32,000 bases of DNA from an uncultured Chloroflexia bacterium (GCA_963718915.1 CAVRAI010000015.1:30001-62000), one strand, 5' to 3'. Shown: positions 2,854 to 23,759, numbered from the stretch's first letter. Numbers and translations: made by a program. Notes: a model not told the origin generated them from the sequence alone.

Positions 2854-2874
2854 CGAGTTGGAGGGAGGACAAGC

Positions 2875-3162: not shown

Positions 3163-3693
3163 TGGCGATACAGTACCAGACAAACGACAGAGCGGGTCCA
3201 ATGCCGAAGCCGATAGAGCACCTGGTACTGCATATTCCTACAGTCCACTCGCGATGGCTGATCCTTGCATCTAGCATTCGACTACGGAAATGACGAGTTG
3301 CCAGCGGTTCTTGCTCATGTTTCACAAGATACCTTGGTGAAATGGTCAACTTCGTGCAGTGAAGTTACCCAGGCAAAAAACCGCTCAATGGCAGTAGTAA
3401 TGCATCCATGATTGATGTTTCATCCACAGTACATGACCTACCATTAGAGCGTGGTGTGAAAAAACGCGTCATGTCAACCATTCGTGGCAGCGGACAGGTG
3501 ATGGACTGAAATCAAGGTCTGCGACTGAGATCGGTAAGCTCATTGTCGCGGACTTAGTTGTAAAGCAGTCGACCATCGTCGTCTATAGGTGTGAGAGCGG
3601 ACAGTCCTCCTGGCGGGGAAAGCGACCTAACTGTAACTGACGAAGTCTAGCGATACATATCAGTGCCGAGTATTTCCAGAAACCAGGCAAACA

Positions 3694-3801
3694 CAGATTG
3701 TGGCTCTGGAGGTCGTGGGTTCAAACCCCATCGGGCACCCCCATGATGCACGTCCCGCATCACGATGCCTCGAATGCTGATATCCTCGGCGTTCGGGGCA
3801 T
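3694..3801. repeat. Direct repeat copy 2 (attR-like): partial tRNA-His 3' half plus downstream flank
   Basis: Near-identical to 960-1067. It lacks the tRNA 5' half, so it is not a functional tRNA. Confidence 0.85.
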
Positions 3802-3886: not shown

Positions 3887-3948
3887 AAGCGAACCATATG
3901 GAGCGAAGCAGTCATGCACCGTGTGCGCCGTTGAGGAAGGAGACGACG

Positions 3949-5259
3949 ATGAGCCGACGTAGTCAGATGCTATTCGCGGCGGGATCGATTCCCGTCGCCG
4001 CTGGTCTCGGGGCTGTCGGAGCGATTCCGCTGGTCCCGCCGCTGGTCTTCGGCGCCTTCTTTCTCCTGCTGACCATCGTGCTGCTCGTCTGGCATCAGCT
4101 GGCGGTGCGCGCCTACCACGGCAACGGCGTGGTGGTCTTTGCGCGCGGGCCGTGGCCAGTGATGATCGCCCTGATATTGATCGAGGCCATCTGCGCAGTG
4201 GATATCCTGCTCGCGCCGGGCAGCGATATCCGCATCTGGCTCTTTCTCGGCTATTTTCTCTTTGGCATAGTCTATCTGTCATTCCTGCCCAGCGCGCTGC
4301 TTTTCTGGGCCGCGGATACTGCGAGGCTGACAAGCCAGGTGCTGGCGTTCAAGCGCTCGCTGCCCTGGCAAGAGATCGACTGGCTCTATCTGGAGAGCAA
4401 CGAGACCACCCAGAAGCAGTACTTCATCACGGTAGCCAAGTGGAAGGACGAGCAACTAATCGTCGAGGCGGGCCCGCGGCGCAGCATGCAGGTGCTTGTG
4501 CGCTCGCCGCTTTCAGGTGGCGCGCCGTCCCCGCTGCTCCAGGCAATCCGCGCGCGGGCGACGCATGCGGCGGTCGGCATCGATCAGCTTCCCGCTGTGC
4601 AGGCGCGGCGGCGCGGGCTGCCCCCGCCATTTTCGCCACAACCTGAGCCAAACGTCAGCCTGCCTGACGCCATCAAAATTGCCCGCGAACCCTCCCTCCC
4701 CGCGAACTGGGCGCGCTTCTCCGTGCGTCGGGGCATCATCTGGCCCAACCTGATCATCTACACCGTGCTGGCAATCGTCGCGGTGGGCTGTGGCATCTTC
4801 ATCGTCGCGTCAGGTACCATCGTCAGCCTCGACCTGATTCCTAAAGACTGGCTCGTCGGGACGCAGCGGTCGCTGGTGCTCTATGGTGAAGGGATTATCT
4901 GCGCCGGGCTGGGGCTGTGGTTCTTCTACTCCTTTACCCTCCGCTGGCTGCGAACCTTGCAACATCCGCAAGACTACTTCTTTCTGGTGACACCGCGCTA
5001 CGTCGCCGAGGTGAAAGGCCAGAAAGTCGAGGGCGTGGCGCTGGCTGACGTACGCGGCATTCGCCGGAGCGGTGGCGGCAACTACGGCTGGCAGATCGTC
5101 CTCGAGATGCGCAACGGCAAGAAGACGGAGTACGACGTGGGGAGCAATTACGGCCCCTCGCGCGATCTGTACGCATATATTCTCGCCGCGCTCAACACCC
5201 GCCGTCCGGCGCAGTCTGCCGCTCCCTTCGGGCCCACCATGCGCGGCGACAGCGGGTAG
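3949..5259 (+). CDS. Hypothetical multi-pass membrane protein, possibly with PH-like (YdbS/YdbT-type) soluble modules
   Basis: ATG 3949 is preceded by GGAAGGAG. Several hydrophobic helices are present (IPLVPPLVFGAFFLLLTIVLLVW, WPVMIALILIEAICAVDILL, LIIYTVLAIVAVGCGIFIVA). They are interspersed with soluble beta-like segments. The PH-like assignment is a guess. Confidence 0.7.
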   Translation: MSRRSQMLFAAGSIPVAAGLGAVGAIPLVPPLVFGAFFLLLTIVLLVWHQLAVRAYHGNGVVVFARGPWPVMIALILIEAICAVDILLAPGSDIRIWLFLGYFLFGIVYLSFLPSALLFWAADTARLTSQVLAFKRSLPWQEIDWLYLESNETTQKQYFITVAKWKDEQLIVEAGPRRSMQVLVRSPLSGGAPSPLLQAIRARATHAAVGIDQLPAVQARRRGLPPPFSPQPEPNVSLPDAIKIAREPSLPANWARFSVRRGIIWPNLIIYTVLAIVAVGCGIFIVASGTIVSLDLIPKDWLVGTQRSLVLYGEGIICAGLGLWFFYSFTLRWLRTLQHPQDYFFLVTPRYVAEVKGQKVEGVALADVRGIRRSGGGNYGWQIVLEMRNGKKTEYDVGSNYGPSRDLYAYILAALNTRRPAQSAAPFGPTMRGDSG

Positions 5260-5391: not shown

Positions 5392-5451
5392 GCCCACCTC
5401 GCACATACCTGATGACCCGTGCCAGGGTAATCAGGTATGTGCGAGGTGGGC
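5392..5451. repeat. Long perfect inverted repeat / hairpin
   Basis: GCCCACCTCGCACATACCTGAT (5392-5413) is the exact reverse complement of ATCAGGTATGTGCGAGGTGGGC (5430-5451). The 16-nt spacer itself contains ACCC...GGGT. No U-tract follows. Confidence 0.85.
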
Positions 5452-5995: not shown

Positions 5996-6316
5996 ATGAC
6001 CCTGATCTTTCATCTCATTAAAAGTCTGTTCCATGCCTTCTTCAAGATCACCTTCACTGCGTTGTTCGTTGGCGTTCTCGCAGCAGGTGCGACGTTGCTG
6101 GTCATCTACATGAACGACGGGCATCTCTGGCCACCATCGACGCTCATCGACGCGGCGGCAGCGGCAATCGGCGTGCTTGCGGCCTATGCCGCTGGCTTAA
6201 CGATGCTGATGCGCGAAGCAGTGCGCGCGGCGCTGACGGTTGAGCATGGCGTAGCCAAGGAAGTTGGGCAGGAGGTCTCAGGCGTCGAGCATGAGCTTGT
6301 GGGTACAAGGAAGTAG
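5996..6316 (+). CDS. Small membrane protein, unknown function
   Basis: ATG 5996 is preceded by AAAGGAG. There are two hydrophobic helices (FKITFTALFVGVLAAGATLLVIY and LIDAAAAAIGVLAAYAAGLTMLM). The longer ORF-track start at 5879 overlaps the previous gene. Confidence 0.55.
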   Translation: MTLIFHLIKSLFHAFFKITFTALFVGVLAAGATLLVIYMNDGHLWPPSTLIDAAAAAIGVLAAYAAGLTMLMREAVRAALTVEHGVAKEVGQEVSGVEHELVGTRK

Positions 6317-6361
6317 ATCTTCGTAGGGGAGTAGACACGAAGCGCACTGCACAATCCTTCG

Positions 6362-7741
6362 CTAGCCGTCTCGTGGAATGACCAGCAGGGGAACCACACA
6401 GCCAATCGCCGAGATGACGACCGCGACCAGCAGCGCGAGCGGAATCGACCGCTCGACCACTGGGCCGGCCAGCGCCGACCCGACGGGCATCCCGGCGAAG
6501 TTCAGGCTCATCGAGACGGCGAAGATACGGCCAAACCAGCGCGAGTCCGTGCGACGCTGGCGCAGCGCGAAGAGGCCGATATCAATCGGGCCAGAAGCCA
6601 GGCCTAGCAGCGCCATCCCCGCCAGCAATGCCACTGGCGATTGCAGCAGAATACACACGCACGCCAGCGCCGCGAACACCATCCCACCGACAATGATCCA
6701 GCGCTCGCGTCCCTCGGTGTTGATGCGTCCGGCCACCAGGCCAGCCACCACCGTCGTCACACCCGCGACCGACCATAACAGGCCGACGCCGTCCGCGCCC
6801 CAGTGGAACTCGCGTAAGATCATGACCGGGAGCGCCACGACGAGGAAACCATAGGGAATATTGGTCATCCACAGCGTCACGATGACACCACGCAATGTGG
6901 GATGGCGCACGACATACACCAGGGACTGCCACGCCGCCCGCAGCAACGGCTCTCGAGCGCCCCGCTCCACTGGCGGCTCCGTGACGCCAAACAGGACGAC
7001 GCAGGTGATGACGAAGATGACCGCCGTCAGCAAAAACGCGCCCTCGCCGCCAAACCACGCGACAAGAAATCCCGCCAGCGCTGGCCCGACGACCATGGCC
7101 AGCGCCATGCTGCCACTATCCACCCCGTTCGCGCGATCCCAGAGCTCGCGCGGCACCGCCCGCGGAAAGAGGGTGCGGGTTCCGCTGATGGTCAACGGAC
7201 TCGTCAGCGAACTGAGCGCCACGATCACCAGCATGGTCACGGGGGTAAGCGCGTTCGCTAGAGAAAGCGCCGTCAGCACCACGAGCGCGAGCGCGGCAAC
7301 GCTGAGATCAATCCGAATCAGGCGCAGACAGCCGTAGCGGTCGAGCAGCGCGCCCGCGATGGGGCTGACCACCAGGCCAGGCACGATGGCGACGAAGGTG
7401 GCGAAACCCGCCAGCGCGGGCGAGTGGAAGCGCTGAAGCACGAACAGCACCAGCGCGACCTGCCAGAGCTGGCCGCCCGTGCGCGCGAGCACGGTAGCCG
7501 CGGCGAGCTTCGGAAATCCCGGCAGGCTGAAGAGTCGGCGATAGCCAACGTCGCGGGTTGTGAAGTCTATGGTGAGGTCTGTCGCTGGGTCTGTCTGGAG
7601 GCCCGTCGTCAGGTCTGTCTTGTCTGCCTCGATGGTCACGCGGTGTTCTCCCCTGCCATATCTTATCATGGCACGCCAGGGAAGGCAGATGTGTCGAGAC
7701 GCCAGCGGCAAGAAGAGTGAGTCGAGACGTACTATAGACAA
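6362..7741 (-). CDS. MFS transporter (EntS/MFS_3-like)
   Basis: About 12 predicted TM helices with MFS-like loops, including LFSLPGFPKLAAATVLARTGGQLWQVALVLFVL and PIAGALLDRYG. The true start may be internal, since the N-terminal ~60 aa are not transporter-like. Confidence 0.85.
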   Translation of the reverse strand: MSIVRLDSLFLPLASRHICLPWRAMIRYGRGEHRVTIEADKTDLTTGLQTDPATDLTIDFTTRDVGYRRLFSLPGFPKLAAATVLARTGGQLWQVALVLFVLQRFHSPALAGFATFVAIVPGLVVSPIAGALLDRYGCLRLIRIDLSVAALALVVLTALSLANALTPVTMLVIVALSSLTSPLTISGTRTLFPRAVPRELWDRANGVDSGSMALAMVVGPALAGFLVAWFGGEGAFLLTAVIFVITCVVLFGVTEPPVERGAREPLLRAAWQSLVYVVRHPTLRGVIVTLWMTNIPYGFLVVALPVMILREFHWGADGVGLLWSVAGVTTVVAGLVAGRINTEGRERWIIVGGMVFAALACVCILLQSPVALLAGMALLGLASGPIDIGLFALRQRRTDSRWFGRIFAVSMSLNFAGMPVGSALAGPVVERSIPLALLVAVVISAIGCVVPLLVIPRDG

Positions 7742-7861: not shown

Positions 7862-8080
7862 GGCTCTTACCAACTCTTGCTTATCGGTGATAGTCCAATG
7901 TACCGATGAAGCAGAACCACAGTACTGATATCCACGAGCAATTGTACTGAGTATGGTAGCGCGCTTTCCTTATTCCCAGCGCCAGCAGACAGCCATACAG
8001 CATCGTCCTCCGTTTGCCTGATCATAGCGCCTTTTGCCGTGTGTAGCCGTCCTCTCGCCGAGGAAATGGAGTAGTCAGTC

Positions 8081-11000
8081 ATGCGTCACATGCGTCACTC
8101 AATCGTGCGCCAGTGGGCCCACATCGCCCGTGTCGCTGTCGTCTCTCTGATGATTCTGGTCGTCTTCCAATCGTCGGGGTTAGGCGCGGGTCCGCTCGGC
8201 CTTCTCGGCGTGGCGCATGCTGCCAGCCTGAAACCACAACCTCCGACCAATACGACATGATGTCGGGCGCTTCGTTCCCTATATCAATGCCCCGCAGCTG
8301 CCCAGTGGCAGCTGGACTCCCAAGCAGTCCACCGCGCCGCGCTCTCAGAGCCATCCAGCCACTGGCCAAACGCCAGCCTCAGGGCGCAAAGCTGGCGAAC
8401 AGGCGGACTTGCGCACGGCAGCGAGTTCGACCACCCTCAACAGCGATGGCACCTGGACCCTCACGTCGTATCCCGTGCCCGTCCATTATCAGGATGCTCA
8501 GGGTAACTGGCAGAATATCGACGACACCGTCGTCACCGATAGTTCAGTCTCGGGCTATGGTTATGGGAATAAGGCAAATGGTTGGCAAGTGCATTTTGCC
8601 CAACAGGCGGGTGGCTCCAAACTGCTCCATCTGCGCTATCCTGGCCTGACAGTCGCCGAGGCGCTGAACGGGGCGGCCACCGTCTCCGCGACGGCCAGTG
8701 GCTCGCAGATCATCTATCCGAGTGTGTTTCCCAGCGTGTTGATCTGCTCTATCTGGTCGGCAATGCCCATCTCGAAGAAACGCTTCTGCTCCACACTGCG
8801 CAGACACCTAGCAGCTATAGCTTCACCTATCACGTTCCCGGCGCGACTGCCCGGTAGACGATGCCGGCAATATTGTCTTCCTGGACACGCACGGTAATGT
8901 CCTGTTAACGGTTGGCGGCATCTCGATGTATGAAGCGGACGCGCAGGGACAGCTGCTGCCCACAGGCAAAGAGACAGATAATGTCACGGTGACACTCTCA
9001 GGAACAAGCCCCAATTATACTGTCACGCTGACGCCAGATCAGGCCTGGCTCACTGATCCCTCACGCCATTTCCCGGTAGCGATTGACCCGACCTTTTCGG
9101 GGCCGATATCGCCATAGCAGCACACGAGTGGCAACACCTATGCTGACACATTCGACGAGAGCGGCAATCCCAGCCTGGGCTTCAATACAATGTCAATACC
9201 GAGCGCATTGGCAATTGCAATGCGATTCCCTCAGGGAGCCACTGGCTATGGTACCGGCACCAATCGGTCATACATCAAGTTCCCGATTGGATCGGCCCCA
9301 GCGGGCGCGCGCGTCACCAGCGCAAACTTGTCGCTTTACCAACTCAGCGCCTATGGGGGCGCGGCAACGACAATTGCCGCCGACGAGATCAAGACTGCAT
9401 GGAATGCGACGACACTGACCTGGAACAACCACCCCACAAGCGTCGCAATAGTCGGGATCGGAACCGCCGAACGGACAACGTACAATGTACTGGTGGCAGG
9501 TCGATGTGACCCAGGCGATCTACAATTGGTGGCAGAATGGCCAGACCGACAATGGCCTCCGGCTGCAGCTATACCGACGAGAGCCAACCGTGTGATCTGT
9601 TCGCCTCCGACGATCGCGGCATCACGAACGAGCTCCCGCAGCTCACGGTCAACTATGTCCAGGACACGACCACGCCTGGTGGCGCCATCACGGCAATCAA
9701 TGGCGGTTCATCCCCAACACCAACAATCCCAACGTCACCCTCGCTACGTCGGTTACGGATACTGGCTCGATCACCGAGTGGGGCAGCAACTGGAGCAACA
9801 CGAATGGGCATTGGTGCCAATGGCGGCACCGCGGCGCATTGGGTGACCAATGGCGCGCAACTGGCCGCCGATACGTCGAGCTGTGGCGCGACGGCTTGCG
9901 CCGCGCAGACATTCATTCCGTCGAACGCCTCGACCTGGTCCAATGTCGCGAACTGGCCCACCTTCACCGCGATGTTCAAGTCAGATCTCGGCGGCCAGTT
10001 CAATTTCGGGATGGTGGCCAGCGGCAATAACAATACCCGCTTCGATCTGGTGGCGGCCGCAGGGATCCTCGGCCTTCACCAGCTTTGGAGTATTCGACCA
10101 CGGCAGGCTCCTTCACCACGCTGGCAGTCAATATTCCCTTCACGGCGAATACCTGGTACTATGGACAGGTCGACTTCACGCGCAGCATCTCGCAGAAATC
10201 TATCTCTGGCCGGTTGGGCAGACCAAACCAGCCGTACCGACCATATTCGCAATGGCGTCTACATGTCGCAGCCGGGCTTGAACTTCTGGGAGCAAGGTGA
10301 CAACAGCGGCAGCGGGTCTCCATACCTACACCATCGCCAATGTCATCGCGACCGCCAAGGATACGAATAGCGGGACCATTGGCTACGGCGTCTATGGCAT
10401 GGAGTTCTCGAATGACGGCAGCACCTGGAGCTGCCCAGCTGGTGGGACCTGGTGCGTCGCGGCCAGCCAACCAGCCCACCTGGACGCTGAGCGCGGGGGA
10501 CGGCGCCAAGACGGTCTCCCTCCGCACGATTGACAACGCGGGCAAAATCTCAAGTTCAGCAAGCAGGACGATTATCTACGATACCACCGGGCCGACCGCC
10601 AGCGTCCTCAGTCCGACGGCAGGCCACGATGTGCGCGGTATCGTGACAGTCAACGCTACTGCCACCGACCCAGCCGCGAGCGATGGATCCTTTTCGGGCA
10701 TTGCCAGTGTCGCGCTCTTCATGGATGGCGGCCAGGTGGGATCGCCTGTCACTGGAACGGATTGCGCCGACCTTCCTCTGGGATACGACCAACGTGGGTT
10801 CTGGCCCGCACACGCTGACTGTGCAGGCCACCGACAACGCGGGCAACGTCGGCCCAATGAGCGCGGGCGTCGTCGTCTCGGTGAGCAACACCGGCCAGAT
10901 GAGCTATGAGACCTATGCGCTGCGTGACCTGCCTGCGGGCGACATCAAGGCCGGGGTCAACGTGGCGACTGGGAATTCCGTCGTCACCGAGCAGGATATC

Positions 11001-12703
11001 GACGTAGCGGGCCGGGGACCAGACCTCGCGCTGGGTCGCGAGTACAACGACCTCATGCCCTCGCCTAAACTCTTCGGCTATGGTTGGTCGAGCGATCTCG
11101 ACGAGAGCATCTACGTCAATGCCGACAACTCGGTGACGTACTATGACGCCAGTGGCGGCGTTCACCTCTTCTTGCCCAATGGGTCGGGTGGCTATATCAC
11201 CCCGCCAGGCTTGTTCCTGACGCTGGCGCATAATCAGGATGGCAGCTATACCCTGACCTCACGCGACCAGACGAAGACGAACTTCAACGTTTCGGGCTCT
11301 CTGAACAGCGTGGTCGACCGCAACGGCAACGCGCTGACCATCGCCTATGATGCGAACAATCTGCCGACGACGATGACCGATTCTTCCGGGCGGACACTGA
11401 CCTTCACGACGAGCGGTGGGCACATCACCCATATCGCCGCGCCCGGCTCGCGCACCTTTGACTACGCCTACAATGCTGCCGGGAACCTGACCGACTACAC
11501 CGATCCGCAGGGGATCGTCACCCACTACGACTACGATGCCAGACCATCGCCTGACCAAGATCACGCTGAATTACCAGTCTGGTGGGCCATCTGACGTGCA
11601 GACCAATGTCGCCACAACGCTCAGCTTATGACGGCGTCCAACCGGCTGGTGAGCCTGGTGGACCCGATGGGCTTCGACGCCGGGATCTGCTATGATTCCG
11701 GCGGAAACTGCTATGGCGCGGATCATCCCTGCGACGGAGCGACGGGGATTCCGGGTCGACCTGTGTGGCGCAATTCTGGAAGCTGGACACCATCCAGATC
11801 GCCTGCAGTTCCGGTCTATCAAGATACTGTCTATACCGCCGCCAATGATGGCTCGGGCGCCGTCACGAAGATCACCGATGCGGCTGAGAAACGATACACT
11901 ATATGCCTACGACGCAGCAACGGCGAACTGACGGAACTTACCGACGCCAATGGGCAATGTCACCGATTACACCTATGACGGCAACGGCAATATGCTGACG
12001 CAGGTGGTGGATCCATCTGGCCTGGCGCTCACGACCTCCTGGACCTATGACAGCGCCAACAACGTCTTGACCGAGACCAATCCCATCCGGACATCGTCAC
12101 CAAGTACACCTATGATGCGCCGACAACCGGGAACGTCGTCACGACCGTCCAAAATTACGAGAGCGGCGGCCCGACGAATAGCGATACCAACGTCACCACC
12201 AGCAACACCTACGATAGCTACGGCGAGGTGCTGACCTCGACCGATCCGCTGGGCGTGGTGACGAAGTACACCTACGACAGCTATGGCGACACGCTGACGA
12301 CCACCGAGAACTACCAGTCGGGTGGGCCGTCGGACGACCATACCAATGTGACGACCAGCGCCACCTATGACGACCTGGGCGAGCAGATGACCTCCACCAA
12401 CGCGCTCGGCATCGTCACCGCGACGGTCTACGATATTCGCGGCAACGTGCAGCAGACGACGGCCAATTACCAGTCGGGCGGGCCAACTGACGCCCAGACC
12501 AATGTCAAGACGCAGTACGGCTACGACGCGCTCGGTCGCCAGATCACCACGACCAACCCGCGCGGCATCGTCACCAAGACCGACTATGATCTTGATGGGC
12601 GTGAGACGCAGACGACTGCCAACTACGTCAGTGGTGGCGCGTCAGGACAGCCAGACCAACGTCGACCACGACGACAAAATATGATGGCGCGGGCAACGCG
12701 ACG
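8081..12703 (+). pseudogene. N-terminal ~4.6 kb of a giant Rhs/YD-repeat protein, broken by at least a dozen frameshifts (or assembly indels)
   Basis: ATG 8081 encodes a signal-peptide-like N-terminus (MRHMRHSIVRQWAHIARVAVVSLMILVVFQSS...). Successive pieces sit in different frames:
- a wall-associated N-terminal region (TLNSDGTWTLTSYPVPVHYQDAQGNWQNIDD);
- a DNRLRE-like module (RSYIKFPIGSAPAGARVTSANLSLYQL...LTWNNHP);
- an Ig-like module (TIIYDTTGPTASVLSPTAGHDVRGIVTVNATATD...HTLTVQATDNAGNVG);
- the Rhs N-terminal region (GRGPDLALGREYN...FGYGWSSDLD);
- many YD repeats (e.g. VTKYTYDSYGDTLTTTENYQSGGPSD). Confidence 0.8.
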
Positions 12704-15238
12704 GTGGCGACGGACGCCAAGGGCAACACGACCACGACGACCTACGATGCCGACAACCGCGCCACCGAGACCAAAGTCCAGGACAGTAGCAACACGGTGG
12801 TGCAGGATACAACGACCGCCTACGATGCCGTCGGAAATACGGTGACCTCGCAGGTGTTCGACAAGACGGGCACACTCCTGACGACGACGACCTATACCTA
12901 TGATGCCGCCAACCGGCTGCTGGCCCAGACCGATCCTCCCGCCGATCCCGGCGCATCGGACCAGAGCGGGCAGTCGAATGTCACGACCTACACCTATGAC
13001 ACCAACGGCAACACGACCGAGACGCTAGTCACCAATGCCGCGCCAATCGGCCCTGGCACGGTCACCGATACGAAAGCGACCTTCGATGCGCTCGGGCGGC
13101 AACTGACCAAGACGCAGGACGCCGATACTGGCTCGCCCAAGACCACCAGCTACGTCTACAATGCGGCTGGGCAGCAGACAAGCATGACCGACGAGGCCAG
13201 CAACACCACCACCAGCAGCTACGATGCATTGGGCCGCGTCACTAGCGTCACCAACCCCGACAGCACCATCGATACGACGATCTATGACGCGGCGGGTGAG
13301 CAGTTGACGCAATCGAACAGTGCGGGAACGACCATTGATTCCTACGACCCGCTGGGCCGAGTGAGTACCGAGCAGCGCAAGAACGGCAGTGGTGTCTCGC
13401 AGGGGATCGTCGCCTACACCTATGACGCCAATGGCAGTGTGCTGCAGAAGGTGACAACACTCGCCGATGGCAGCCAGGTGACGAGCGTCAGCACCTACGA
13501 CGCCCTCGACCGCCAAGCGACGATGAACGACGGCACGCGCAGCTACACCTACGACTTGGCGGGCAACGTCACCCATATGCAAGTGGTCGTCTCCGGCAGC
13601 GGCTACGCGGTGCAGACCGACTCCACCTATGACGGCGGCAATCGCGTCTCCAGCCTCTACGACAAGGTGGGTCCGTCGGCCACCATCTTGCACAGCTACG
13701 GCTATACCTACGATGGCAACGGCAACCGCAGCAGCATCGTCGAGGATGGCGCGACCACAACCAACTACAGTTACGACGACCTCAACCAACTGACTCAGGT
13801 GAAGGTCGGCTCGACCACGACTGCGACCTATACCTACGATGCCAATCACAACCGCACCAGCCTGGTGACGGCCGCCGGGACAACTGGCTATACCTACGAC
13901 GACTCGGACCATCTGACCCAGAAGACCGATCCCGACGGCAAGGTCACGAATTATGGCTACGACACCTCAGGCAACCTGACCAGCGCCAGTTATGATCCAA
14001 CCGGCGTCAACCAGGTCACCCAGTATCACTACGATACCAATAGTCGGCTGACCGAGATCGACCAGCCGAGTGGGACAACGATCCAGTTTGGCTACGACAC
14101 CGACAACAACCGCACCACCAAGACGATTACCAGCGGCGGGGTGAGTCACAGCGTCAACGACGTGTATGTGCTCGGCCATCTCGCCTATGAGACCGACGAG
14201 AACGGGACGGTGCTCGCCACCTTCACCTATGACTCGTCGGGCGTACCGGTCAGCGTCCAGGTCGGCAGCGACCCAAACGCCTCCCCGCGCTACTATTACG
14301 TCTACAACGGCCACGGGGATGTCGTGGCGCTGGTCGACGCGCAGGGGAATGTTGCCGCAAGCTATGCCTACGATGCCTTCGGCCAACTGACCACGGCCTC
14401 CGAGAGCTTTGGGAGCGGAACCATCTGGACCAATCCGTACCGCTATGATGGGCGTGACAGCGTGCGTTACGATGGCGAGACAGATCTCTATTGGATGTCT
14501 GTCCGCGCCTATGACCCTACACTGGACCGCTTCCTTTCACGTGATCCGTTGGGGCGTGCGCCACTGTACTTCAGCGACCAGCCGTATGTCTACGCGGGTA
14601 ATAATCCGCTCGTCAACGTTGATCCCAGCGGGCAACGATTCACTACTGATTCGGGCCAAGTGCGAGCGGCAGGTTCTGCGAGTTCACCAAGTCGCGTGAC
14701 AACGTATCCTGGGCGCCCGCTGGCCGGCGGTAAAGGCAAGGAAAGAGCGTCAGGAAAAGAAGAGAACATCTGGTATTGGAAAGAGGATGGTGGTGGCAGG
14801 CATACGGCGTGGATGGGGCCGATTGAGCCTGATCCCAAAGGCTGGCACTTCAATCTTCATATTGAAAACAAGAAAGGCGAAACCCTTGCTAACTACCACT
14901 TCTACTTCTTCGGGTGGTTGGGTATGGGTAGTGGACACGAAGCTTTCGTCTGGTATGTGATAGATACAGACGGCAAGACAACGCGTTTTAAACAATCCTT
15001 TGAGGTGGAAAACAGCGTGTTAGGGCTAGCCGCTACGAAGGTAGCAGTGGATATGACGAGAATGATCGCAAGCAGATTTTCTTTGCCCATGGAATTCAGA
15101 GAAAAACTCATGGGCGAGGATGAAAATGTGTACTCGCGGATATTTGAGGAGGTGTTTGGTAAGAGTAACTATCTGCAAGACATGTTGAGTCGTCTTAACC
15201 AGAGACCTTTGACCAAGAAAGAGAAGTTTGGGCTCTAA
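12704..15238 (+). CDS. Rhs/YD-repeat core plus C-terminal polymorphic toxin domain (intact 844-aa reading frame; the frame is open slightly upstream of 12704)
   Basis: YD repeats run continuously (xxTYxYDxxGNxxx). The core end is WTNPYRYDGRDSVRYDGETDLYWMSVRAYDPTLDRFLSRDPLG...YVYAGNNPLVNVDPSGQ. A 200-aa unrelated tail follows. Confidence 0.85.
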   Translation: MATDAKGNTTTTTYDADNRATETKVQDSSNTVVQDTTTAYDAVGNTVTSQVFDKTGTLLTTTTYTYDAANRLLAQTDPPADPGASDQSGQSNVTTYTYDTNGNTTETLVTNAAPIGPGTVTDTKATFDALGRQLTKTQDADTGSPKTTSYVYNAAGQQTSMTDEASNTTTSSYDALGRVTSVTNPDSTIDTTIYDAAGEQLTQSNSAGTTIDSYDPLGRVSTEQRKNGSGVSQGIVAYTYDANGSVLQKVTTLADGSQVTSVSTYDALDRQATMNDGTRSYTYDLAGNVTHMQVVVSGSGYAVQTDSTYDGGNRVSSLYDKVGPSATILHSYGYTYDGNGNRSSIVEDGATTTNYSYDDLNQLTQVKVGSTTTATYTYDANHNRTSLVTAAGTTGYTYDDSDHLTQKTDPDGKVTNYGYDTSGNLTSASYDPTGVNQVTQYHYDTNSRLTEIDQPSGTTIQFGYDTDNNRTTKTITSGGVSHSVNDVYVLGHLAYETDENGTVLATFTYDSSGVPVSVQVGSDPNASPRYYYVYNGHGDVVALVDAQGNVAASYAYDAFGQLTTASESFGSGTIWTNPYRYDGRDSVRYDGETDLYWMSVRAYDPTLDRFLSRDPLGRAPLYFSDQPYVYAGNNPLVNVDPSGQRFTTDSGQVRAAGSASSPSRVTTYPGRPLAGGKGKERASGKEENIWYWKEDGGGRHTAWMGPIEPDPKGWHFNLHIENKKGETLANYHFYFFGWLGMGSGHEAFVWYVIDTDGKTTRFKQSFEVENSVLGLAATKVAVDMTRMIASRFSLPMEFREKLMGEDENVYSRIFEEVFGKSNYLQDMLSRLNQRPLTKKEKFGL
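14636..15238 (+). other. Rhs C-terminal tip 1 (CT1): candidate toxin domain, family not recognised
   Basis: It starts immediately after DPSGQ (14621-14635). The DNA turns visibly AT-richer here. The sequence includes ...ENIWYWKEDGGGRHTAWMGPIEPDPKGWHFNLHIENKKGETLANYHFYFFGWLGMGSGHEAFVWYVIDTDGK... I cannot assign a catalytic motif. Confidence 0.6.
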
Positions 15239-15317
15239 CGTGTTGGCGTTTGTCTAAGTGTGACAGTACAGTGATAGGTGAGTCGTAGCGCCCACACCAG
15301 TTGCCCAGGAGAGTTCA

Positions 15318-15968
15318 ATGCCGCATAATGAAGGCCCATCGCAAGAAGCGGGATGGAAGTATGGTCCCGTTTTGGTGACGTATGGAGCGTTCTCCATCCG
15401 CGAGTGTTGGAAGGTGTTTGACGGCATCCGAAGGTTTCACTTTCATGAACTCGTGTTTAGAGCAACGCCATCGTCTCCCAACCAAGACGCAGAAACGATT
15501 TCTATCGCGCTAATTGGTCTGCGGCGGACTGATCTGGTCTATGTGGTGCGTTGGGCGCGTATCTGGGTTAACGGGCGTCGTCATGATTTGGCAATGAATC
15601 ACCGCGCGACTTCACACATGCCAGACGATACTGCACCGCTTTCTCTGCATGTTGCTGAAAACGATAAGAATACCAGCGATGAGTTAGACGGGTCAGATAC
15701 TGGATGGGGCAAAGAGCTGTCCTCGGATCCAAATGGCGCGCAACCCGAGGAAGCAAGCGATGAGGATGTTGATGAAGCCGCTTGGGAAGCCAGGATGGTA
15801 CATGAGACAGAACTTGTTGCGCAGGCCCTTCAGGAACTAGAAGCGCAACACCCCGAACTTGATCTCGAGCCTTTCGAAGAGACGAATAATCCCGATCCAG
15901 AGTTTGACGAGGAATTGAGACGGAGCACTCAGGCCGAGGATAATTGGGACAACAAGATGCAGAGTTAG
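15318..15968 (+). CDS. Candidate cognate immunity protein for CT1 (globular N-domain plus highly acidic tail)
   Basis: 216-aa ORF starting 80 nt after the Rhs stop, with AGGAGAG upstream. The C-terminal ~100 aa are rich in D/E (SDEDVDEAAWE...ELDLEPFEETNNPDPEFDEE). Being the first gene after an Rhs tip is the canonical immunity position. Confidence 0.5.
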   Translation: MPHNEGPSQEAGWKYGPVLVTYGAFSIRECWKVFDGIRRFHFHELVFRATPSSPNQDAETISIALIGLRRTDLVYVVRWARIWVNGRRHDLAMNHRATSHMPDDTAPLSLHVAENDKNTSDELDGSDTGWGKELSSDPNGAQPEEASDEDVDEAAWEARMVHETELVAQALQELEAQHPELDLEPFEETNNPDPEFDEELRRSTQAEDNWDNKMQS

Positions 15969-16040
15969 GTTGGGGGCTGACAGCCACTTAAGAGTCGCAG
16001 GCATTTACGTCAATGAGATAGAATCCAACTACGCTCTTGA

Positions 16041-17111
16041 TGTTCACGTTCTCCCTGTGCAACCAGTATTCAGGTTGGCTGCGCCCCCAACAACTCGTCG
16101 CAGTATAACCACGTCTATAACGGCCACGGCGATGCGGTTACGCTGGTCGATGCCAGTGGCAATACCACCGCCAGCTACAGCTACGATGCCTTCGGCCAGT
16201 TGATCAAGTTCAGCGACAGTTTCGGGGGGACGACTACCTGGACCAACCCCTATCGCTACGACGGACGTGATGGCGTGCGCTATGATGGCGAGACGGGCCT
16301 CTACTGGATGAGTGTGCGCGCCTACGACCCGGCGCTGGGGCGCTTCCTCAGCCGCGATCCGCTGGGCCGTGTCCCGCTCTTCTTCGCCGACCAGCCGTAT
16401 GTCTACGCGGGCAACAACCCGCTCCTCAATGTCGATCCCAGCGGGCAGTTCATGGCGACGGAAGGCGTCTCCAATGCACAGGCGCACGCCATCATGAAGC
16501 AAAAAGCCCGCATATATTGGACCCCACCAAGACCTAGAAAGGGGTGGAATGGTTGCTATGAGGGAGATAGAGCGTGTCAGGGGGCTAAGGCAAAACACGA
16601 CGCTCAGGGAGCCTACAACGAGATTACCAACCAGCTTGTCGAACTGTGGGGAAAAGCCTTCAAAGATTGGCTAAATGAGCATTTCAATATCTTTGAAAAG
16701 CTCATTCACTGGACACTAGATCAGGTACTGGATTGGTTAGGTGGCGAAAGCGCCAAAGCGCTGTTTAGCACGCTGACAAAGGATGGGACAGGTGCCCAAG
16801 TCTGGATGCTTGCTCCTTGGCTCGCGTCAATGTGGGAGGCGAATCAGGATGCCTCATGGTTTAGAGTTCCGAAGAACATTGTCAACTTTGGACGCTGGGA
16901 AGAGGACACCGATTTCGCACTAGGAATTGGTGGAGTTGTCTCTATTGGAGCAGGATTAGCTGGAGGCAACGAAGGAGCTGTTGGGTTTGGTTGGGGCATA
17001 ATTGAGGCTTCAGAAGGTTGGACAACGTTGGATGACTCGGTATGGGATCAGCTACTCGAATATGTAACCAGTTGGCCTATTGGCGGACCTGGACACATGC
17101 AGGTTCGGTAG
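16041..17111 (+). CDS. Orphan Rhs C-terminal cassette (core 3' block plus second, unrelated tip CT2); no convincing own start codon
   Basis: The frame is open from 16041, and the ORF track starts at a TTG at 16200. Bases 16101-16448 encode YNHVYNGHGDAVTLVDASGNTTASYSYDAFGQL...WTNPYRYDGRDGVRYDGETGLYWMSVRAYDPALGRFLSRDPLG...NNPLLNVDPSGQ, homologous to 14294-14635. The 220 aa after DPSGQ are unrelated to CT1. Confidence 0.7.
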   Translation, partial: CSRSPCATSIQVGCAPNNSSQYNHVYNGHGDAVTLVDASGNTTASYSYDAFGQLIKFSDSFGGTTTWTNPYRYDGRDGVRYDGETGLYWMSVRAYDPALGRFLSRDPLGRVPLFFADQPYVYAGNNPLLNVDPSGQFMATEGVSNAQAHAIMKQKARIYWTPPRPRKGWNGCYEGDRACQGAKAKHDAQGAYNEITNQLVELWGKAFKDWLNEHFNIFEKLIHWTLDQVLDWLGGESAKALFSTLTKDGTGAQVWMLAPWLASMWEANQDASWFRVPKNIVNFGRWEEDTDFALGIGGVVSIGAGLAGGNEGAVGFGWGIIEASEGWTTLDDSVWDQLLEYVTSWPIGGPGHMQVR

Positions 17112-17137
17112 CAAAGAGTAATCAGAAAAGAGGCACA

Positions 17138-17875
17138 ATGCGGAACATGAGCCAGTATCTCGTAGGTAGGCGTATACACACTATGTTATCAGTAAGCTGC
17201 GTGCTAGGGATCCTTTCCGTCGTCCTGTGCACCTTGCTTGGTTGCGGTCTTCCTGCTCAAAGTGTGACATCAGCGCCAACGCCAACTATTCAACAGATCT
17301 TAGCGCATGCGCGTGCTGTACGCATTGGGGATGGCATCATCAACTTAACACTAAGCAGTACCAAGCAGGGACAGCCACCTGAACATGGCACAGGAACGAT
17401 AAAATTCACCAGTCAACCGGAGCGCCTAGACTTAGGCATAACACTTTCCTCAGGCGAGACAGTTTTTTCCGGCGAAGAGATTGCTGATGCAGCCACAAAT
17501 AGTGTTTATGCTAAAGTCGACGTTCCCTCAAAATTTACAAGCAATACCTGGACAAAGACACAGAACGGCTTCGATTTTGCCAGCTTCAACAATGTGCTTC
17601 ACTACGCCAATCTCGGTAATCCTGTGCTCTTGGGCGGTGAATCGCTGCAACATGTACGTGTTTGGCATCTGCGCGGATCTGCGGTCAATCAAGGGCCAAA
17701 TACATCACTTGATGTGTATCTACGACAAGACAACTTCTTGCCCGTCGAGGTTGTCCTTACCACCCGAGGAAATCCCTCAGGAACTGTGACTTATTTCTAC
17801 ACCGCACTCAATACTGGGATCTCGATTGTATTGCCCGTGCTCCCTACCCCTACAGTCGGAGCGTCCTCACAGTAG
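17138..17875 (+). CDS. Putative lipoprotein (candidate immunity or accessory protein of the orphan cassette)
   Basis: ATG 17138 is preceded by AAAAGAGG. The signal peptide has a lipobox: RRIHTMLSVSCVLGILSVVLCTLLGC. The mature part is beta-rich and has no motif I recognise. Confidence 0.6.
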   Translation: MRNMSQYLVGRRIHTMLSVSCVLGILSVVLCTLLGCGLPAQSVTSAPTPTIQQILAHARAVRIGDGIINLTLSSTKQGQPPEHGTGTIKFTSQPERLDLGITLSSGETVFSGEEIADAATNSVYAKVDVPSKFTSNTWTKTQNGFDFASFNNVLHYANLGNPVLLGGESLQHVRVWHLRGSAVNQGPNTSLDVYLRQDNFLPVEVVLTTRGNPSGTVTYFYTALNTGISIVLPVLPTPTVGASSQ

Positions 17876-17947
17876 CTCTGGTTGTGGCGATGTCCGATAG
17901 CAGCCATGCTGCCAAATTTGAGTGCGACTTGCCGATGATAGGAGAAT

Positions 17948-18274
17948 ATGATGACCCAGCCCATGTCTATCATGGACTTTCTCTTTGGCATAGGTCAGGC
18001 GATACTAGTGGTGATTTTAGGATTGTTGATTCTACTTTTCCGTACCCCACGAAGTGAGCGCTTACTGCGCAGACGGCGGTTCTTGTATGTTCTGAGCGCG
18101 ATAGCATGCGTTGTCATTCAACTGATGATAACAAGTTTATTGGGGACAGTACTCTCAGGTTCACCAATACACGCGCTTACACTACCTACGATTCTCGGTT
18201 TGCTTTTGATGAGTCCGTTCTATGTTCTAGGGATAGCTGTCTTCTTTCGTGCCATCAGTTATAGGCCCAGTTGA
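17948..18274 (+). CDS. Small multi-pass membrane protein (candidate immunity protein)
   Basis: 108-aa ORF with TAGGAGAA upstream. It has three to four hydrophobic helices (FLFGIGQAILVVILGLLILLF, FLYVLSAIACVVIQLMITSLLGTVL, LTLPTILGLLLMSPFYVLGIAVFF). Confidence 0.6.
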   Translation: MMTQPMSIMDFLFGIGQAILVVILGLLILLFRTPRSERLLRRRRFLYVLSAIACVVIQLMITSLLGTVLSGSPIHALTLPTILGLLLMSPFYVLGIAVFFRAISYRPS

Positions 18275-18307
18275 CGTATCGATATGCATATAAAATATCC
18301 GAGCTGA

Positions 18308-18853
18308 ATGAGCAGCCTGAACACGACACGCGCAGGCGGCAGCGCCACGACACTGCTGGATAGCATCGGCTATAGCGGCGCAGGGAGCGGCAGGACATGC
18401 CACCAGCACCAGCGTGGCTACGACGCCGACAACAACCGCACCACCAAGACCATCACCAGCGGCGGGGTGAGCCATAGCGTCAACGACGTCTATGTGTTTG
18501 GGCATCTGGCCTACGAGACTGATGAGAACGGGACGGTGCTCGCCACTTTCACCTATGACTCGCACGGCGCGCCCGTCAGCGTCCAGGTGGGGAGCGCTCC
18601 CAATACCTCCCCGCGCTACTACTATGTCTATAACGGCCATGGCGATGTCGTTGCCCTCGTTGATGCACAGGGGAATGTGGCTGCCAGCTACGCCTACGAT
18701 GCCTTCGGCCAGTTGACCTCGGCCAGCGAGAACTTCGGCAGCGGCACGACCTGGACGAACCCATATCGCTATGATGGGCGCGATGGTGTGCGCTACGATG
18801 GCGAGACGGCTTGTCTTGGATGAGCGTCCGCGCCTATGATCCCGCGCTCGGAT
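18308..18853 (+). pseudogene. Tip-less orphan Rhs core fragment
   Basis: It encodes DNNRTTKTITSGGVSHSVNDVYVFGHLAYETDENGTVLATFTYDSHGAPVSVQVGS...YYYVYNGHGDVVALVDAQGNVAASYAYDAFGQL...WTNPYRYDGRDGVRYDGET, nearly identical at the protein level to 14090-14525. A 1-nt deletion relative to the other copies (GAGACGG-C, about 18808) shifts the frame. Homology stops at about 18851, before the DPxGQ motif. Confidence 0.8.
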
Positions 18854-19288
18854 AGCCTACTCCACGCCACTCTTGTCGCCCACAATTTGAAGCGCTTTGG
18901 TGGCTATCTGCCGCAGCGGAGCGCGCAGGGCGGCGGGCTGGCGGACGTGTACCAGGAAGTCGAGCGTGAGCAGGTTGTGCGCGATCTACTCCAGTTGCGT
19001 CGCGCCACGGCGAAAGATCACCCCATGCTCCGCTGGCTCCAGTGTAGCCATCATGGCCGGGATAACTTGCCGCGCCCGCTCCATCGTCGTCTGCAGCAGC
19101 GCCTCAACCTGATCGCGTGGCGCCGCGAAGGCGCCCGACCTGCTCGTCGGCGATATCCGCCAGTTCGTCCGCTCGTTGCGCGCGCAGCGGCAGACCGGGT
19201 ACGGTTGGAGATACTGGCTGGGCATGGCGCAATAGCTTGTCCCAGACAGCATCAGGCGATGATGCGTGGACATTATCAGGAGCTTGTC

Positions 19289-20362
19289 ATGACGCCAGCG
19301 GATATCGATTTGCAACGATTGTCTCAGCAGCGGCTCGCAGGCCATCACGTCGCGACGCCGGAGGAGGTGGTCGGCTGGTTCGGCGCGGTCCAGTCGCAGG
19401 AATACCTGGGGGCGATCTGGTCGCTGGGCATGCGCATGGGTGGCGAGACGACCGACGATGTGATCGAGCGCGCTTTCACTGAGGGGACAATCCTGCGCAC
19501 CCATGTCATGCGCCCAACCTGGCATTTCGTGGCCCCCGCCGATATTCGCTGGCTGCTGGCTTTGACCGCGCCGCGCATCAAGGCCACAATGTCCTACTAT
19601 GACCGCCAGCTTGACCTTGACGACACGCTCTATGCCCGCAGCAACGAGGTCATCGCCAGGGCGCTGGAGGGCGGAAAGCATCTGACACGCGCCGAGCTAG
19701 GGAAGGCGCTGGCGGAGGCTAACATCGTCGTAGCGGGGCAGCGGCTGGCCCATATCGTCTCACACGCCGAGCTAGACGCGGTGGTGTGCAGCGGCCCCCG
19801 GCGCGGGAAGCAGTTCACCTACGCGCTGCTGGTGGAGCGCGCACCAACCGCGAGGACGTTGCCCCGCGATGAGGCGCTGGCCGAGCTGACGCAGCGCTAC
19901 TTCACCAGCCACGGCCCAGCGACGGCCCGCGACTTCGCCTGGTGGTCGGGGCTGACGATGGCCGATGCCCAGACGGGCCTGAAGATGGTCGGCTCTGACC
20001 TCACCCACGAGGAGATCGCGGGCCAGACGTACTGGTTCCCGGCATCGCTGTCGCCTGCCCCAGATGCATCTGAGGTGGCTTTCCTGCTGCCGACCTATGA
20101 CGAGTTGCTGGTAGGCTACCATGGTTTCGGCGCGGCGCTGACGGGCGGGAACGGCAACGGCGAGCGGGCGGCATTCAGCGCGACGATGGTGATCAGCGGC
20201 CGGGTCGTCGGCAACTGGCGGCGAACAATCACCAGGGGAGCCGTGGTAATCGAGCTGGCTCCATTCGCGCCGCTGACCGCATCCGAACGCGAGGCCGTCT
20301 CCATCGCCGCTGGGCGCTACGGCGCGTTCCTCGGCTTGCCGGTGGAGTGTGTGGGGCTGTAG
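19289..20362 (+). CDS. Winged-helix DNA-binding domain protein of the AlkZ/YcaQ (DUF1006) type, a putative DNA glycosylase family
   Basis: From ATG 19289: MTPADIDLQRLSQQRLAGHHVATPEEVVGWFGAVQSQEYLGAIWSLGMR...ILRTHVMRPTWHFVAPADIRWLL...RYFTSHGPATARDFAWWSGL...LLPTYDELLVGY. The 150-aa N-terminal extension in the ORF track is Arg-rich and probably not coding. Confidence 0.75.
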   Translation: MTPADIDLQRLSQQRLAGHHVATPEEVVGWFGAVQSQEYLGAIWSLGMRMGGETTDDVIERAFTEGTILRTHVMRPTWHFVAPADIRWLLALTAPRIKATMSYYDRQLDLDDTLYARSNEVIARALEGGKHLTRAELGKALAEANIVVAGQRLAHIVSHAELDAVVCSGPRRGKQFTYALLVERAPTARTLPRDEALAELTQRYFTSHGPATARDFAWWSGLTMADAQTGLKMVGSDLTHEEIAGQTYWFPASLSPAPDASEVAFLLPTYDELLVGYHGFGAALTGGNGNGERAAFSATMVISGRVVGNWRRTITRGAVVIELAPFAPLTASEREAVSIAAGRYGAFLGLPVECVGL

Positions 20363-22403: not shown

Positions 22404-23759
22404 ATGCCCGGAGACCTGCCATTCTTGCCGAGTCCGGTCGCTTCCGGGCCATGGCCGACGTTTAGTCTCGATATAGCCACCCGCGAAAGCATTTCCCTCG
22501 GTAAAGGTCCACGGGCTGGAGGCGGAACGTACGTTCTGCCGCAGGGTTCCCCGGTGTCGGGGCCGCCAAACTCGAATCCCGGTGGTGTCTCAGGGCAGGG
22601 CCAGCCCATTCGTGTGGCAGGGCCGGGCGGCCCAATCAACTACCATCCGGCGCCAGTGGCCCGTGCCCCGGTGGGCGAACCAGGTGGAGTCAGGCCGCCC
22701 CAAAAGCCCATCCGAACGGCTGGCCCGCATATGGGTGGTTCGCACACCGGGTCTCCGGGTGCCCCGCCACCTGCGCAATCCGCGCCACCCCCACCGCAGG
22801 ACGCGACGTCTGCCCAGCTCGCGCCCGCATCTGGCGAGGATCAACGCGCTCGCGAAATGCGCGAAATAGCCGAGGATGAGAGGTGGGCGCGTGCAACCAC
22901 GGCAGCAGCGCCGCCGTTCGCGCGAACGCTCCAGTTCACCGCCTACCATCCCAATACCGTCGCCGTCGAGACCTGGAACACGCTGCTCGTCTACACCTAT
23001 GTCACCGAGGCGCTGGCAGACATCCAGGCTGACGCGGGTACCTTCCCAGAACTGGGCAACGCGCCAACCGTGGCCAAAGGGCAATCTTCGCGTGTGGTGG
23101 CGCGTGACGTCGAGTTAACCGTTGAGGCGCACATGGAGGGCGTCACGTTTACCCCGGCGAAAGAAACGTTCACCTTGCGTGAGAACTGGAAGCGCTCGCT
23201 CTTCCGCTTCTCTGGCGAGGCCACACTGGCGGGACGCGAACAGCGCGGCTGGATCGACATCTACGCCGGGCCGATGGTCCCTATCGCCCGCATTGATATT
23301 GCGTTCTCCTTTCGCAAAGGTGGAACGCAACAACTCGCCACCAGCCCGCCACGGGGCATGATCGTCACCAGTAACATCTACGATGTGGCATTCATCTCAT
23401 ACTGCCATCGCGACCGTGAGGCATTCCGCCAGGCATGCGAAGAATACCACCGCTTTGGCATCGCCATCTATACCGACGAGCAACTCGAAGCCGGAGCAAA
23501 CTATGAGGTCGAACTGGCCAGGATGATCGCGGAGGCGAATATCTTCCATCTACTCTGGTCACACGGATCGGCACGATCGATCGAATGTCAGAAGGAGTGG
23601 CTCTCCGCGTTACAGCGTGAACCTACCGAGAGATTCATCAAGCCGTGGTACTGGAAACAGCCGCTGCCGCCACTCCCTGAAGAGTTCAGCCAGCACCGCA
23701 TCTCGTTCAAGTATGAGCCGCTCAAGCGCCGTCTCTTGCGGCCAGCAACCTGGTTCTAA
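22404..23759 (+). CDS. TIR-domain protein with a Pro/Gly-rich N-terminal region and an unassigned beta-rich middle domain
   Basis: ATG 22404 is preceded by GAGGAGG. The C-terminal ~125 aa (from about 23379) read YDVAFISYCHRDREAFRQACEEYHRFGIAIYTDEQLEAGANYEVELARMIAEANIFHLLWSHGSARSIECQKEWLSAL. This is a TIR_2-like pattern (FISY..D, D..l..G, S..S..C..E). Residues ~20-150 are low-complexity P/G-rich. Confidence 0.75.
   Translation: MPGDLPFLPSPVASGPWPTFSLDIATRESISLGKGPRAGGGTYVLPQGSPVSGPPNSNPGGVSGQGQPIRVAGPGGPINYHPAPVARAPVGEPGGVRPPQKPIRTAGPHMGGSHTGSPGAPPPAQSAPPPPQDATSAQLAPASGEDQRAREMREIAEDERWARATTAAAPPFARTLQFTAYHPNTVAVETWNTLLVYTYVTEALADIQADAGTFPELGNAPTVAKGQSSRVVARDVELTVEAHMEGVTFTPAKETFTLRENWKRSLFRFSGEATLAGREQRGWIDIYAGPMVPIARIDIAFSFRKGGTQQLATSPPRGMIVTSNIYDVAFISYCHRDREAFRQACEEYHRFGIAIYTDEQLEAGANYEVELARMIAEANIFHLLWSHGSARSIECQKEWLSALQREPTERFIKPWYWKQPLPPLPEEFSQHRISFKYEPLKRRLLRPATWF

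Follow-up and report, generated by a model that had tools for sequence, protein, structure and literature searches.

How does an Rhs (YD-repeat) locus come to carry three copies of the 3' end of its core, two of them followed by different tips, and do such copies still exchange tips? The question is raised by a 32,000-nucleotide (nt) stretch of DNA from an uncultured Chloroflexia bacterium (GCA_963718915.1 CAVRAI010000015.1:30001-62000), which we call the window and number from its first letter. The Rhs genes in question extend from position 8081 to 18853. In all likelihood they form a chromosomal Rhs polymorphic-toxin locus in a Chloroflexia-like, probably monoderm host, composed of a main rhs gene with a C-terminal tip (CT1), a candidate immunity gene, and two displaced 3' ends downstream, here termed orphans 1 and 2.

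The repeated core block was mapped by BLASTN comparison of the window with itself and by a separate repeat search, which returned the same three-copy family. All three copies lie on the positive strand, span ~380-550 nt, and fall within 5 kb of one another:

14083-14634, + strand: core block copy 1, main gene; ends in NNPLVNVDPSGQ (self-BLASTN, repeat search, translation)
16065-16447, + strand: core block copy 2, orphan 1; ends in NNPLLNVDPSGQ (TIGR03696, E = 6e-17)
18409-18851, + strand: core block copy 3, orphan 2; core fragment that has no tip, 1 nt deleted near 18811; ends short of DPSGQ

The main-gene block was 83.2% identical to orphan 2 over 435 nt (14083-14517 versus 18409-18842; E = 8e-128) and 75.4% identical to orphan 1 over 378 nt (14258-14634 versus 16071-16447; E = 1e-68), while the two orphans shared 75.9% identity (16071-16339 versus 18584-18851; E = 6e-47). 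The longest exact runs common to the main block and the orphan blocks were 24-25 nt. The translated block of the main gene ended in ...AGNNPLVNVDPSGQ and that of orphan 1 in ...AGNNPLLNVDPSGQ, with NNPL(V/L)NVDPSGQ as the terminus of both. The deletion near 18811 gives orphan 2 the ending ...RYDGETACLG*, with the stop at 18823; homology goes on in the next frame (MSVRAYDPALG*) as far as 18851, short of the DPSGQ motif. Past the motif, CT1 and CT2 had no detectable similarity to each other (best BLASTP E = 8.9). These results agree with the initial annotation of the window, which had placed three same-orientation blocks within ~30 nt of the coordinates given here, had seen copies 1 and 2 end in NNPL(V/L)NVDPSGQ and copy 3 stop earlier, and had recognised nothing shared beyond the motif; the self-comparison that it proposed returned the same blocks and end points. 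Its AT-richer stretch at ~14700-18300 was likewise recovered, as a guanine-plus-cytosine (GC) content of 0.49-0.54 across 14501-18500 against 0.58-0.63 in the YD-repeat body (9501-14500), the orphan-1 core block (0.60) excepted.

Differences between the main block and orphan 1 were distributed 22/20/53 over the three codon positions, with 78% amino acid (aa) identity; for orphan 2, the corresponding values were 9/7/48 and 92%. Since the changes fall mainly at third codon positions, the blocks diverged inside functional rhs genes and arrived with their own tips, rather than being in situ duplicates that decayed later. Between the end of orphan 2 and the likely start of the next gene, an AlkZ-like glycosylase gene (ATG at 19290 with an AGGAG ribosome-binding site, RBS), lie 436 nt of unassigned GC-rich DNA (18852-19289). 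A long open reading frame (ORF) at 18836-20362 probably over-extends this gene, because its Pfam domain begins only at residue 179.

The main gene is laid out as follows:

8081-15238, + strand: main rhs gene, conceptually ~2,370 aa, collinear with an intact 2,397-aa homolog (L001); not a single ORF as assembled
8081-8230, + strand: N-terminal Sec-type signal peptide, MRHMRHSIVRQWAHIARVAVVSLMILVVFQSSGLGAGPLGLLGVAHA/AS, recognised by inspection of the translation of ORF 8081-8260
10956-11171, + strand: DUF6531, start of the Rhs shell (PF20148, E = 8e-14, residues 92-163 of ORF 10683-11594)
12704-15238, + strand: longest intact ORF, 844 aa, from the 3' YD-repeat body through the end of the Rhs core to tip CT1

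An RBS-like GGAG precedes the ATG at 8081. The signal peptide, judged by inspection and not by a predictor, has a positive n-region, a hydrophobic core, and an AHA motif, and the N terminus of the L001 homolog is similar. It leads into an N-terminal region of ~900 aa with carbohydrate-binding-like (CBM96-like) and Ig-like domains. The L001 homolog combines a signal peptide, CBM96, DUF6531, 24 RHS-repeat stretches, and the core with a different tip; TBLASTN with its protein was collinear with the window over 8247-14701, the frame changing along the way. In ORF 12704-15238, RHS_repeat (PF05593, E = 2e-52) was matched in seven stretches, and the Pfam and NCBIfam scans also returned TIGR01643 YD repeats. 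Further RHS repeats occurred in the upstream ORF pieces and in a frame-corrected protein, where DUF6531 was detected again. An Ig-like domain was also matched in the profile searches. The Rhs-associated core (TIGR03696) was found at residues 556-644 of ORF 12704-15238, with bit scores of 57.7 for the main gene and 61.9 for orphan 1 (cutoff, 32.5); both copies end in NVDPSGQ, and orphan 2 lacks the domain end. With RHS_repeat, DUF6531, and TIGR03696 all matched, the locus is an Rhs (YD-repeat) polymorphic-toxin locus, as first annotated. The suggested non-proteobacterial origin also stood: the closest relatives in the species-representative genome set are two Chloroflexia metagenome-assembled genomes (MAGs).

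Pfam scans covering the separate gene pieces, the corrected protein, and the L001 homolog revealed no PAAR, VgrG, LXG, or WXG domain. None of the genes nearby has a link to secretion; they encode an MFS transporter, the AlkZ-like glycosylase, and a CNNM/CorC protein. A type VI secretion system (T6SS) Rhs effector was ruled out for lack of a PAAR or VgrG domain and of a T6SS gene neighbourhood, and membership in a type VII secretion system (T7SS) was ruled out by the domain scans and the gene neighbourhood. The CdiA/CdiB class of contact-dependent growth inhibition was dismissed too: Pfam and NCBIfam scans gave only RHS-type domains, with no TPS domain, FHA repeats, VENN motif, or CdiB. With no marker of a T6SS or T7SS in evidence, export is presumably Sec-dependent, as in Bacillus WapA.

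The main gene ends in a tip with a gene of its own directly downstream:

14636-15238, + strand: tip CT1, 200 aa; low-complexity linker, then a ~155-aa domain with invariant W..P.E.D..G.HFNL...AN.H
15318-15968, + strand: candidate CT1 immunity gene for an acidic, soluble protein of 216 aa, isoelectric point 4.5; AGGAG RBS before the ATG, no signal peptide or transmembrane (TM) segment

An exhaustive HMMER scan of 1.84 billion representative proteins returned three relatives of CT1. One (P0003) comes from a short contig on which no core is visible (L070), but a tip differing from it by one residue is attached to the end of an Rhs core in L065/L067. In an orphan-like fragment (L063), the second (P0004) is likewise joined to a core end; the third (P0005, in L064) is a free-standing protein with a signal peptide. 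The alignment of these proteins retained, among other invariant residues, W59, P62, E64, D66, G69, H71-F-N-L74, A85-N86, and H88. CT1-like tips joined to core ends were seen in L063 and L065-L068, on contigs of 1.2-1.8 kb that are too short to show a full gene.

Homologs of the downstream ORF are P0007 (53%) and P0008 (45%). In L065-L068, P0007 lies directly 3' of the CT1-like tip (55%) and 5' of the next orphan core block, in the same order as in the window. This co-conservation of CT1 and ORF 15318-15968 supports a toxin/immunity pair, with the cytoplasm as its probable site of action. The initial annotation could place neither tip in a known toxin family, nor could we: CT1 had no Pfam (E up to 5), NCBIfam, or PDB family match, and a PDB sequence search gave chance antibody matches only. 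The AlphaFold2 model of CT1, built on a very shallow alignment, had a predicted local distance difference test (pLDDT) score of 53.5, and Foldseek found nothing in PDB at E <= 0.001.

One element of the initial annotation, the main gene, is not a single ORF as assembled. Only 12704-15238 is open, and upstream of 12704 the gene is split into >12 overlapping ORF pieces in all three frames:

8255-12645, + strand: frameshift zone; ~24 frameshifts and one in-frame TAG (9115), from frameshift-aware alignments

The alignments used two independent guides, the L001 protein and an intact ORF of a related locus (L002), which share the stretch 8460-11780. Sites called by both guides were 8736, 8852/5, 9184, 9234/40, 9490, 9569, 9714/7, 9806, 10056/62, 10084, 10178/87, 10243, 10314/20, 10468/71, 10763, 11541, 11623/6, and 11633; those at 8255, 11883, 11914, 11946, 12085, and 12645 were called with the L001 guide. 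Frameshift-aware alignment found none in 12646-15238. After correction, the main protein read sensibly end to end. Across 8460-11780, it was 86% identical in amino acids to the L002 ORF, with differences of 114/91/383 by codon position and 316 synonymous versus 156 non-synonymous codon changes. Apart from the single TAG, the lesions are indels alone. Some 10.9 kb of flanking genes consist of full-length ORFs with domain matches and no frame breaks, and the 2.6-kb 3' part of the main gene is equally unbroken. No common sequence motif or homopolymer context was found at the frameshift sites. The nearest relatives come from a Nanopore-only MAG project (Flye with one Medaka round), and the ORFs of the window itself are recorded on a contig of 1.04 Mb.

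Two explanations of these disruptions have to be weighed. That the lesions are confined to indels, in a sequence showing signs of purifying selection, favours consensus error, and we rate long-read consensus errors as moderately better placed than real decay to account for the ~24 sites. The alternative, a genuinely decayed locus in which real frameshifts killed the main gene and left relics, with immunity genes possibly kept against the toxins of relatives, retains a sizeable minority share of the probability. It takes the ~24 frame changes and the TAG in the sequence as given; orphan 2 carries a 1-nt deletion and a truncation as well, and the L002 rhs gene is broken by insertion sequence (IS) elements and frameshifts. 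It also fits the protein database, from which the main ORF is missing while its neighbours P0001 and P0006 are present, as a pseudogene call by the source annotation would leave it. However, neutral decay that gathers 24 indels is expected, by our rough estimate, to introduce nonsense codons as well, some 5-10 or more, and to level out the codon-position bias, whereas a single TAG was found and the 114/91/383 bias is retained. Moreover, the lesions end abruptly at 12645, the next 2.6 kb of the gene is clean, and the 10.9 kb of neighbouring genes is intact. The end of the zone falls within ~60 nt of a breakpoint in the comparison with L002 described below. Speculatively, the 5' part could be common to several loci or strains in the sample, and hence badly polished, and the 3' module unique.

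Downstream of the main cassette, orphan 1 carries a complete tip cassette:

16448-17111, + strand: tip CT2, 220 aa; first ~61 residues conserved with its sole known relative, remainder diverged
17138-17875, + strand: candidate CT2 immunity gene encoding a lipoprotein (signal peptide and LLGC lipobox); AAGAGG RBS before the ATG, 26 nt after the CT2 stop
17948-18274, + strand: small membrane protein, 108 aa, 3-4 TM segments; hydrophobic segments, possible second immunity or accessory gene, presumed member of the cassette

Both orphans are same-orientation partial core copies without the 5' body or a translation start. Orphan 1 has its own tip, different from that of the main gene, and its own candidate immunity gene, and orphan 2 is tip-less, which matches how the two had been described initially. 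The single homolog of CT2 (P0002, in L062) is 41% identical over the full tip. Nucleotide homology between the window and L062 covers 16065-16631 at 81%, that is, the core block and the first ~61 tip codons, and then ends, a pattern suggesting that the tip begins with a conserved linker and continues as a diversifying toxin domain. The lipoprotein, whose hydrophobic N terminus is evident in the hydropathy plot, is 29% identical (E = 2e-33) to a lipobox-bearing ORF directly 3' of the CT2-like tip in L062, so that this candidate pair, like that of CT1, recurs on another metagenome contig. The small membrane protein has weak similarity (E = 5e-4 over 31 residues) to a 105-aa membrane ORF located ahead of the L062 orphan.

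Like CT1, CT2 had no Pfam (E up to 5), NCBIfam, or PDB match, with chance antibody matches only in the PDB sequence search. Its AlphaFold2 model (pLDDT 45.8, very shallow alignment) was mostly helical in the toxin part, and Foldseek against PDB returned nothing at E <= 0.001. A glycine-zipper or pore-forming toxin was considered and dropped, since no 19-aa window of CT2 is strongly hydrophobic, unlike in its relative P0002, which does contain such a window. That the partner is an exported lipoprotein suggests a CT2 target outside the cytoplasm, possibly the cell envelope of monoderm Chloroflexia.

Could orphan 1 instead be expressed alone and act inside its producer as a toxin-antitoxin-like module? 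The orphan 1 frame is open from ~16038 with no ATG, GTG, or TTG until the TTG at 16200, from which a 303-aa ORF (16200-17111) runs on to the end of CT2; the public source called it a protein (P0001), and an orphan Rhs of Salmonella is reported to be a toxin-antitoxin module (PMC7043789). However, no RBS lies ahead of the TTG and the ORF begins in the middle of the conserved core, while the candidate immunity protein, as an exported lipoprotein, would not meet a cytoplasmic toxin. We therefore regard this possibility as improbable.

The comparison with L002 bears on the origin of the orphans. There, the main gene is 80-90% identical to the window up to ~12750 and 63-73% identical over 12750-13500, and it closes with a 3' segment and a tip that differ from those in the window. 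The window-type 3' module is found downstream instead: window 12713-14535 is 80-88% identical to an orphan at L002 10001-11835, which is tip-less and cut within RFLSRDPL. In the C-terminal displacement model, an incoming 3' module pushes the older one downstream (PMC2935791). Because L002 keeps the window-type module as a downstream orphan, displacement is directly supported. An incoming module in L002 that pushed the ancestral one, still in place in the window, downstream is what the model predicts, and historical C-terminal displacement at this locus is, from the sequence comparison, well supported.

Several features of L002 deserve mention in their own right. Its rhs gene is interrupted by an IS3-type element (6181-7409; OrfA at 6181-6504 and an integrase-core ORF at 6504-7409). 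The gene ends (7951-8952) in a third, unrelated tip for which Pfam gave no match; behind it lies a 233-aa ORF whose N terminus is hydrophobic. Its 5' end is abutted and truncated by an IS630-like element (L002 1-839) that is 79% identical to one in the window.

A plain tandem duplication of the 3' end of the gene within the locus, during which the tips did not diversify, would account for three same-orientation copies within 5 kb but is scarcely credible and was ruled out by the unrelated tips (the BLASTP comparison above). Each of the sequences after DPSGQ is also followed by a distinct gene of its own, the 17-25% difference between the blocks is mostly synonymous, and the CT1 and CT2 cassettes occur separately elsewhere.

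Whether the copies still recombine is a separate matter. The only experimentally shown switch between a main rhs gene and an orphan, in Salmonella LT2, involved 95% identity over 522 bp (PMC3967940). No comparable recombination tract was found here, where identity was 75% over 378 nt and 82-83% over ~440 nt, with exact runs of <=25 nt. Such low identity and short exact runs make active switching between these copies doubtful and likely rare. Of the tip-switching architecture initially proposed, then, the historical part is upheld by L002, and ongoing exchange between these blocks (75% and 83% identical, with exact runs of 24-25 nt) is doubtful. The locus looks like an archive of past displaced tips rather than an active switch.

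Nor is the architecture striking outside Proteobacteria, as had been supposed. Of 41 related loci that contain the core, spread over several phyla, 11 had same-orientation repeated core-end blocks, including L002, an Anaerolineae locus (L005), an Ardenticatenales locus (L007), and Paenibacillus. In three independent loci, short orphans were seen to start within ~40 nt of one core position (...VQVGSDPN..., main gene 14213-14258), namely, at 16065/16071 in the window, 607-646 in L062, and 1670 in L065. This shared start hints at a preferred junction for displacement of short modules, distinct from the long-module junction near 12700. More tentatively, the sharp boundary at ~12700 between the disrupted 5' part of the main gene and its unbroken 3' module might be a real recurrent junction at which 3' modules of 1.9-2.5 kb are exchanged, and CT1 and CT2 might represent two undescribed toxin families with new folds or activities.

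Taken together, the displaced-tip locus might work as follows. The main product would consist, in order, of a Sec signal peptide, the ~900-aa N-terminal region, the DUF6531 plug, the YD-repeat shell, the core ending in DPSGQ, and CT1. By analogy with characterised Rhs proteins, we infer that the shell encapsulates the tip and that autoproteolysis at the core motif frees it; the freed tip would be delivered into neighbouring cells, and the immunity protein would shield the producer and its kin. As new segments comprising core end, tip, and immunity gene recombined in, two older 3' ends would have been displaced downstream. Orphan 1 would have retained CT2, the lipoprotein immunity candidate, and the small membrane protein, and the tip of orphan 2 would have been lost. 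Without a start codon or export region, the orphans may serve as silent stores of toxin and immunity genes, and the immunity genes may still be expressed.

Several observations weigh against this account. As assembled, the main gene cannot yield a full-length protein, and genuine frameshifts would leave nothing of the locus functional save possible immunity genes. The L002 rhs gene is damaged as well (IS3, IS630-like), so real decay does occur in the lineage. The Nanopore-only project is that of the relatives, and the indels lie mostly outside homopolymers, unlike the errors classically made by Nanopore sequencing. The one place where CT2 was seen attached to a core is an orphan-like fragment (L062, a 2.7-kb contig), not a demonstrably full-length gene. 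Finally, no toxin activity could be assigned to CT1 or CT2, given low-confidence models and an empty fold search.

The locus extends the Rhs architecture of a main gene plus orphans to soil Chloroflexia, in an apparently Sec-exporting form, and the comparison with L002 provides a clean natural case of C-terminal displacement of a long 3' module. It also offers two candidate toxin/immunity pairs from families almost absent from public data, which can be tested for new antibacterial activities. For annotation, it carries a warning that large repetitive toxin genes in long-read MAGs can hold dense local frame errors. Calls of "main" or "pseudogene" from such assemblies require checking at the read level.

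Outside the rhs genes, the window contains several further features. A tRNA-His gene lies at 932-1009, and its 3' part with ~60 nt downstream (960-1067) is repeated with 95% identity at 3694-3801. The repeats flank a 2.7-kb segment (1010-3693) of lower GC content (0.50-0.52) with a DUF433 ORF, part of an Mrr_cat restriction endonuclease, and a ParA-type ATPase of which no more than the first ~38 positions remain; the arrangement looks like the att duplication of a degraded element that had inserted into a tRNA gene. A 60-nt palindrome at 5392-5451, 90% self-complementary and downstream of ORF 3898-5259, may be a terminator. Two TIR_2 ORFs, at 22404-23759 (451 aa, C-terminal TIR) and 25685-26128 (truncated, 147 aa), enclose the unassigned ORFs 23870-24820 and 24933-25682 and together with them may form a defence-type gene cluster. 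The IS630-like transposase of the window, on the negative strand at 26121-27137, is split into two ORFs (DDE_3, 26121-26585; HTH, 26724-27137) and sits between the truncated TIR_2 ORF (25685-26128, + strand) and a truncated IMS/UmuC-like ORF (26860-27405, - strand); an S24 LexA/UmuD-like peptidase gene (27348-27812, - strand) adjoins this region. At 27885-29336 and 29346-30458 lie tandem paralogous genes of the FemAB family/GNAT (Acetyltransf_6), with nucleotide tracts of 67-79% identity.

How, then, does this locus compare with known systems? Enterobacterial rhs loci with displaced tips (PMC2935791, PMC3150448, PMC3967940) are alike in having a large main gene and same-orientation partial cores that lack a start, with a different tip after a DPxG core motif and a small downstream gene of its own for each copy. 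The tip regions are lower in GC than the core in both cases, and the L002 comparison fits C-terminal displacement. The locus described here differs in its Chloroflexia-like host and in having a Sec signal peptide instead of a PAAR/VgrG T6SS context. One displaced module is long (1.85 kb, in the relative L002), and the main gene is frame-disrupted as assembled. Main and orphan copies, moreover, share 75-83% identity with exact runs of <=25 nt, as opposed to the 522-bp tract of 95% identity in Salmonella LT2 (PMC3967940).

WapA-type Rhs proteins of monoderms likewise combine an N-terminal signal peptide, no dedicated secretion marker, a YD-repeat shell, a polymorphic C-terminal tip, and a downstream immunity candidate. 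WapA has wall-binding repeats in its N-terminal region, where the window encodes CBM96-like and Ig-like domains plus DUF6531. So far as sequence searches show, CT1 and CT2 are unrelated to the WapA tRNases. WapA and WapI of Bacillus subtilis are reportedly a toxin/immunity system, in work attributed to Koskiniemi et al. (PNAS, 2013); a WapA of Streptococcus suis belongs to the same class (PMC12704120).

CdiA/CdiB systems share the polymorphic C-terminal toxin past a conserved motif, the cognate immunity gene, and downstream orphan modules; here, however, the body is built of YD repeats, and the CdiA/CdiB hallmarks listed above are missing. The arrangement in the window is thus already well known, and it is common well beyond Proteobacteria.

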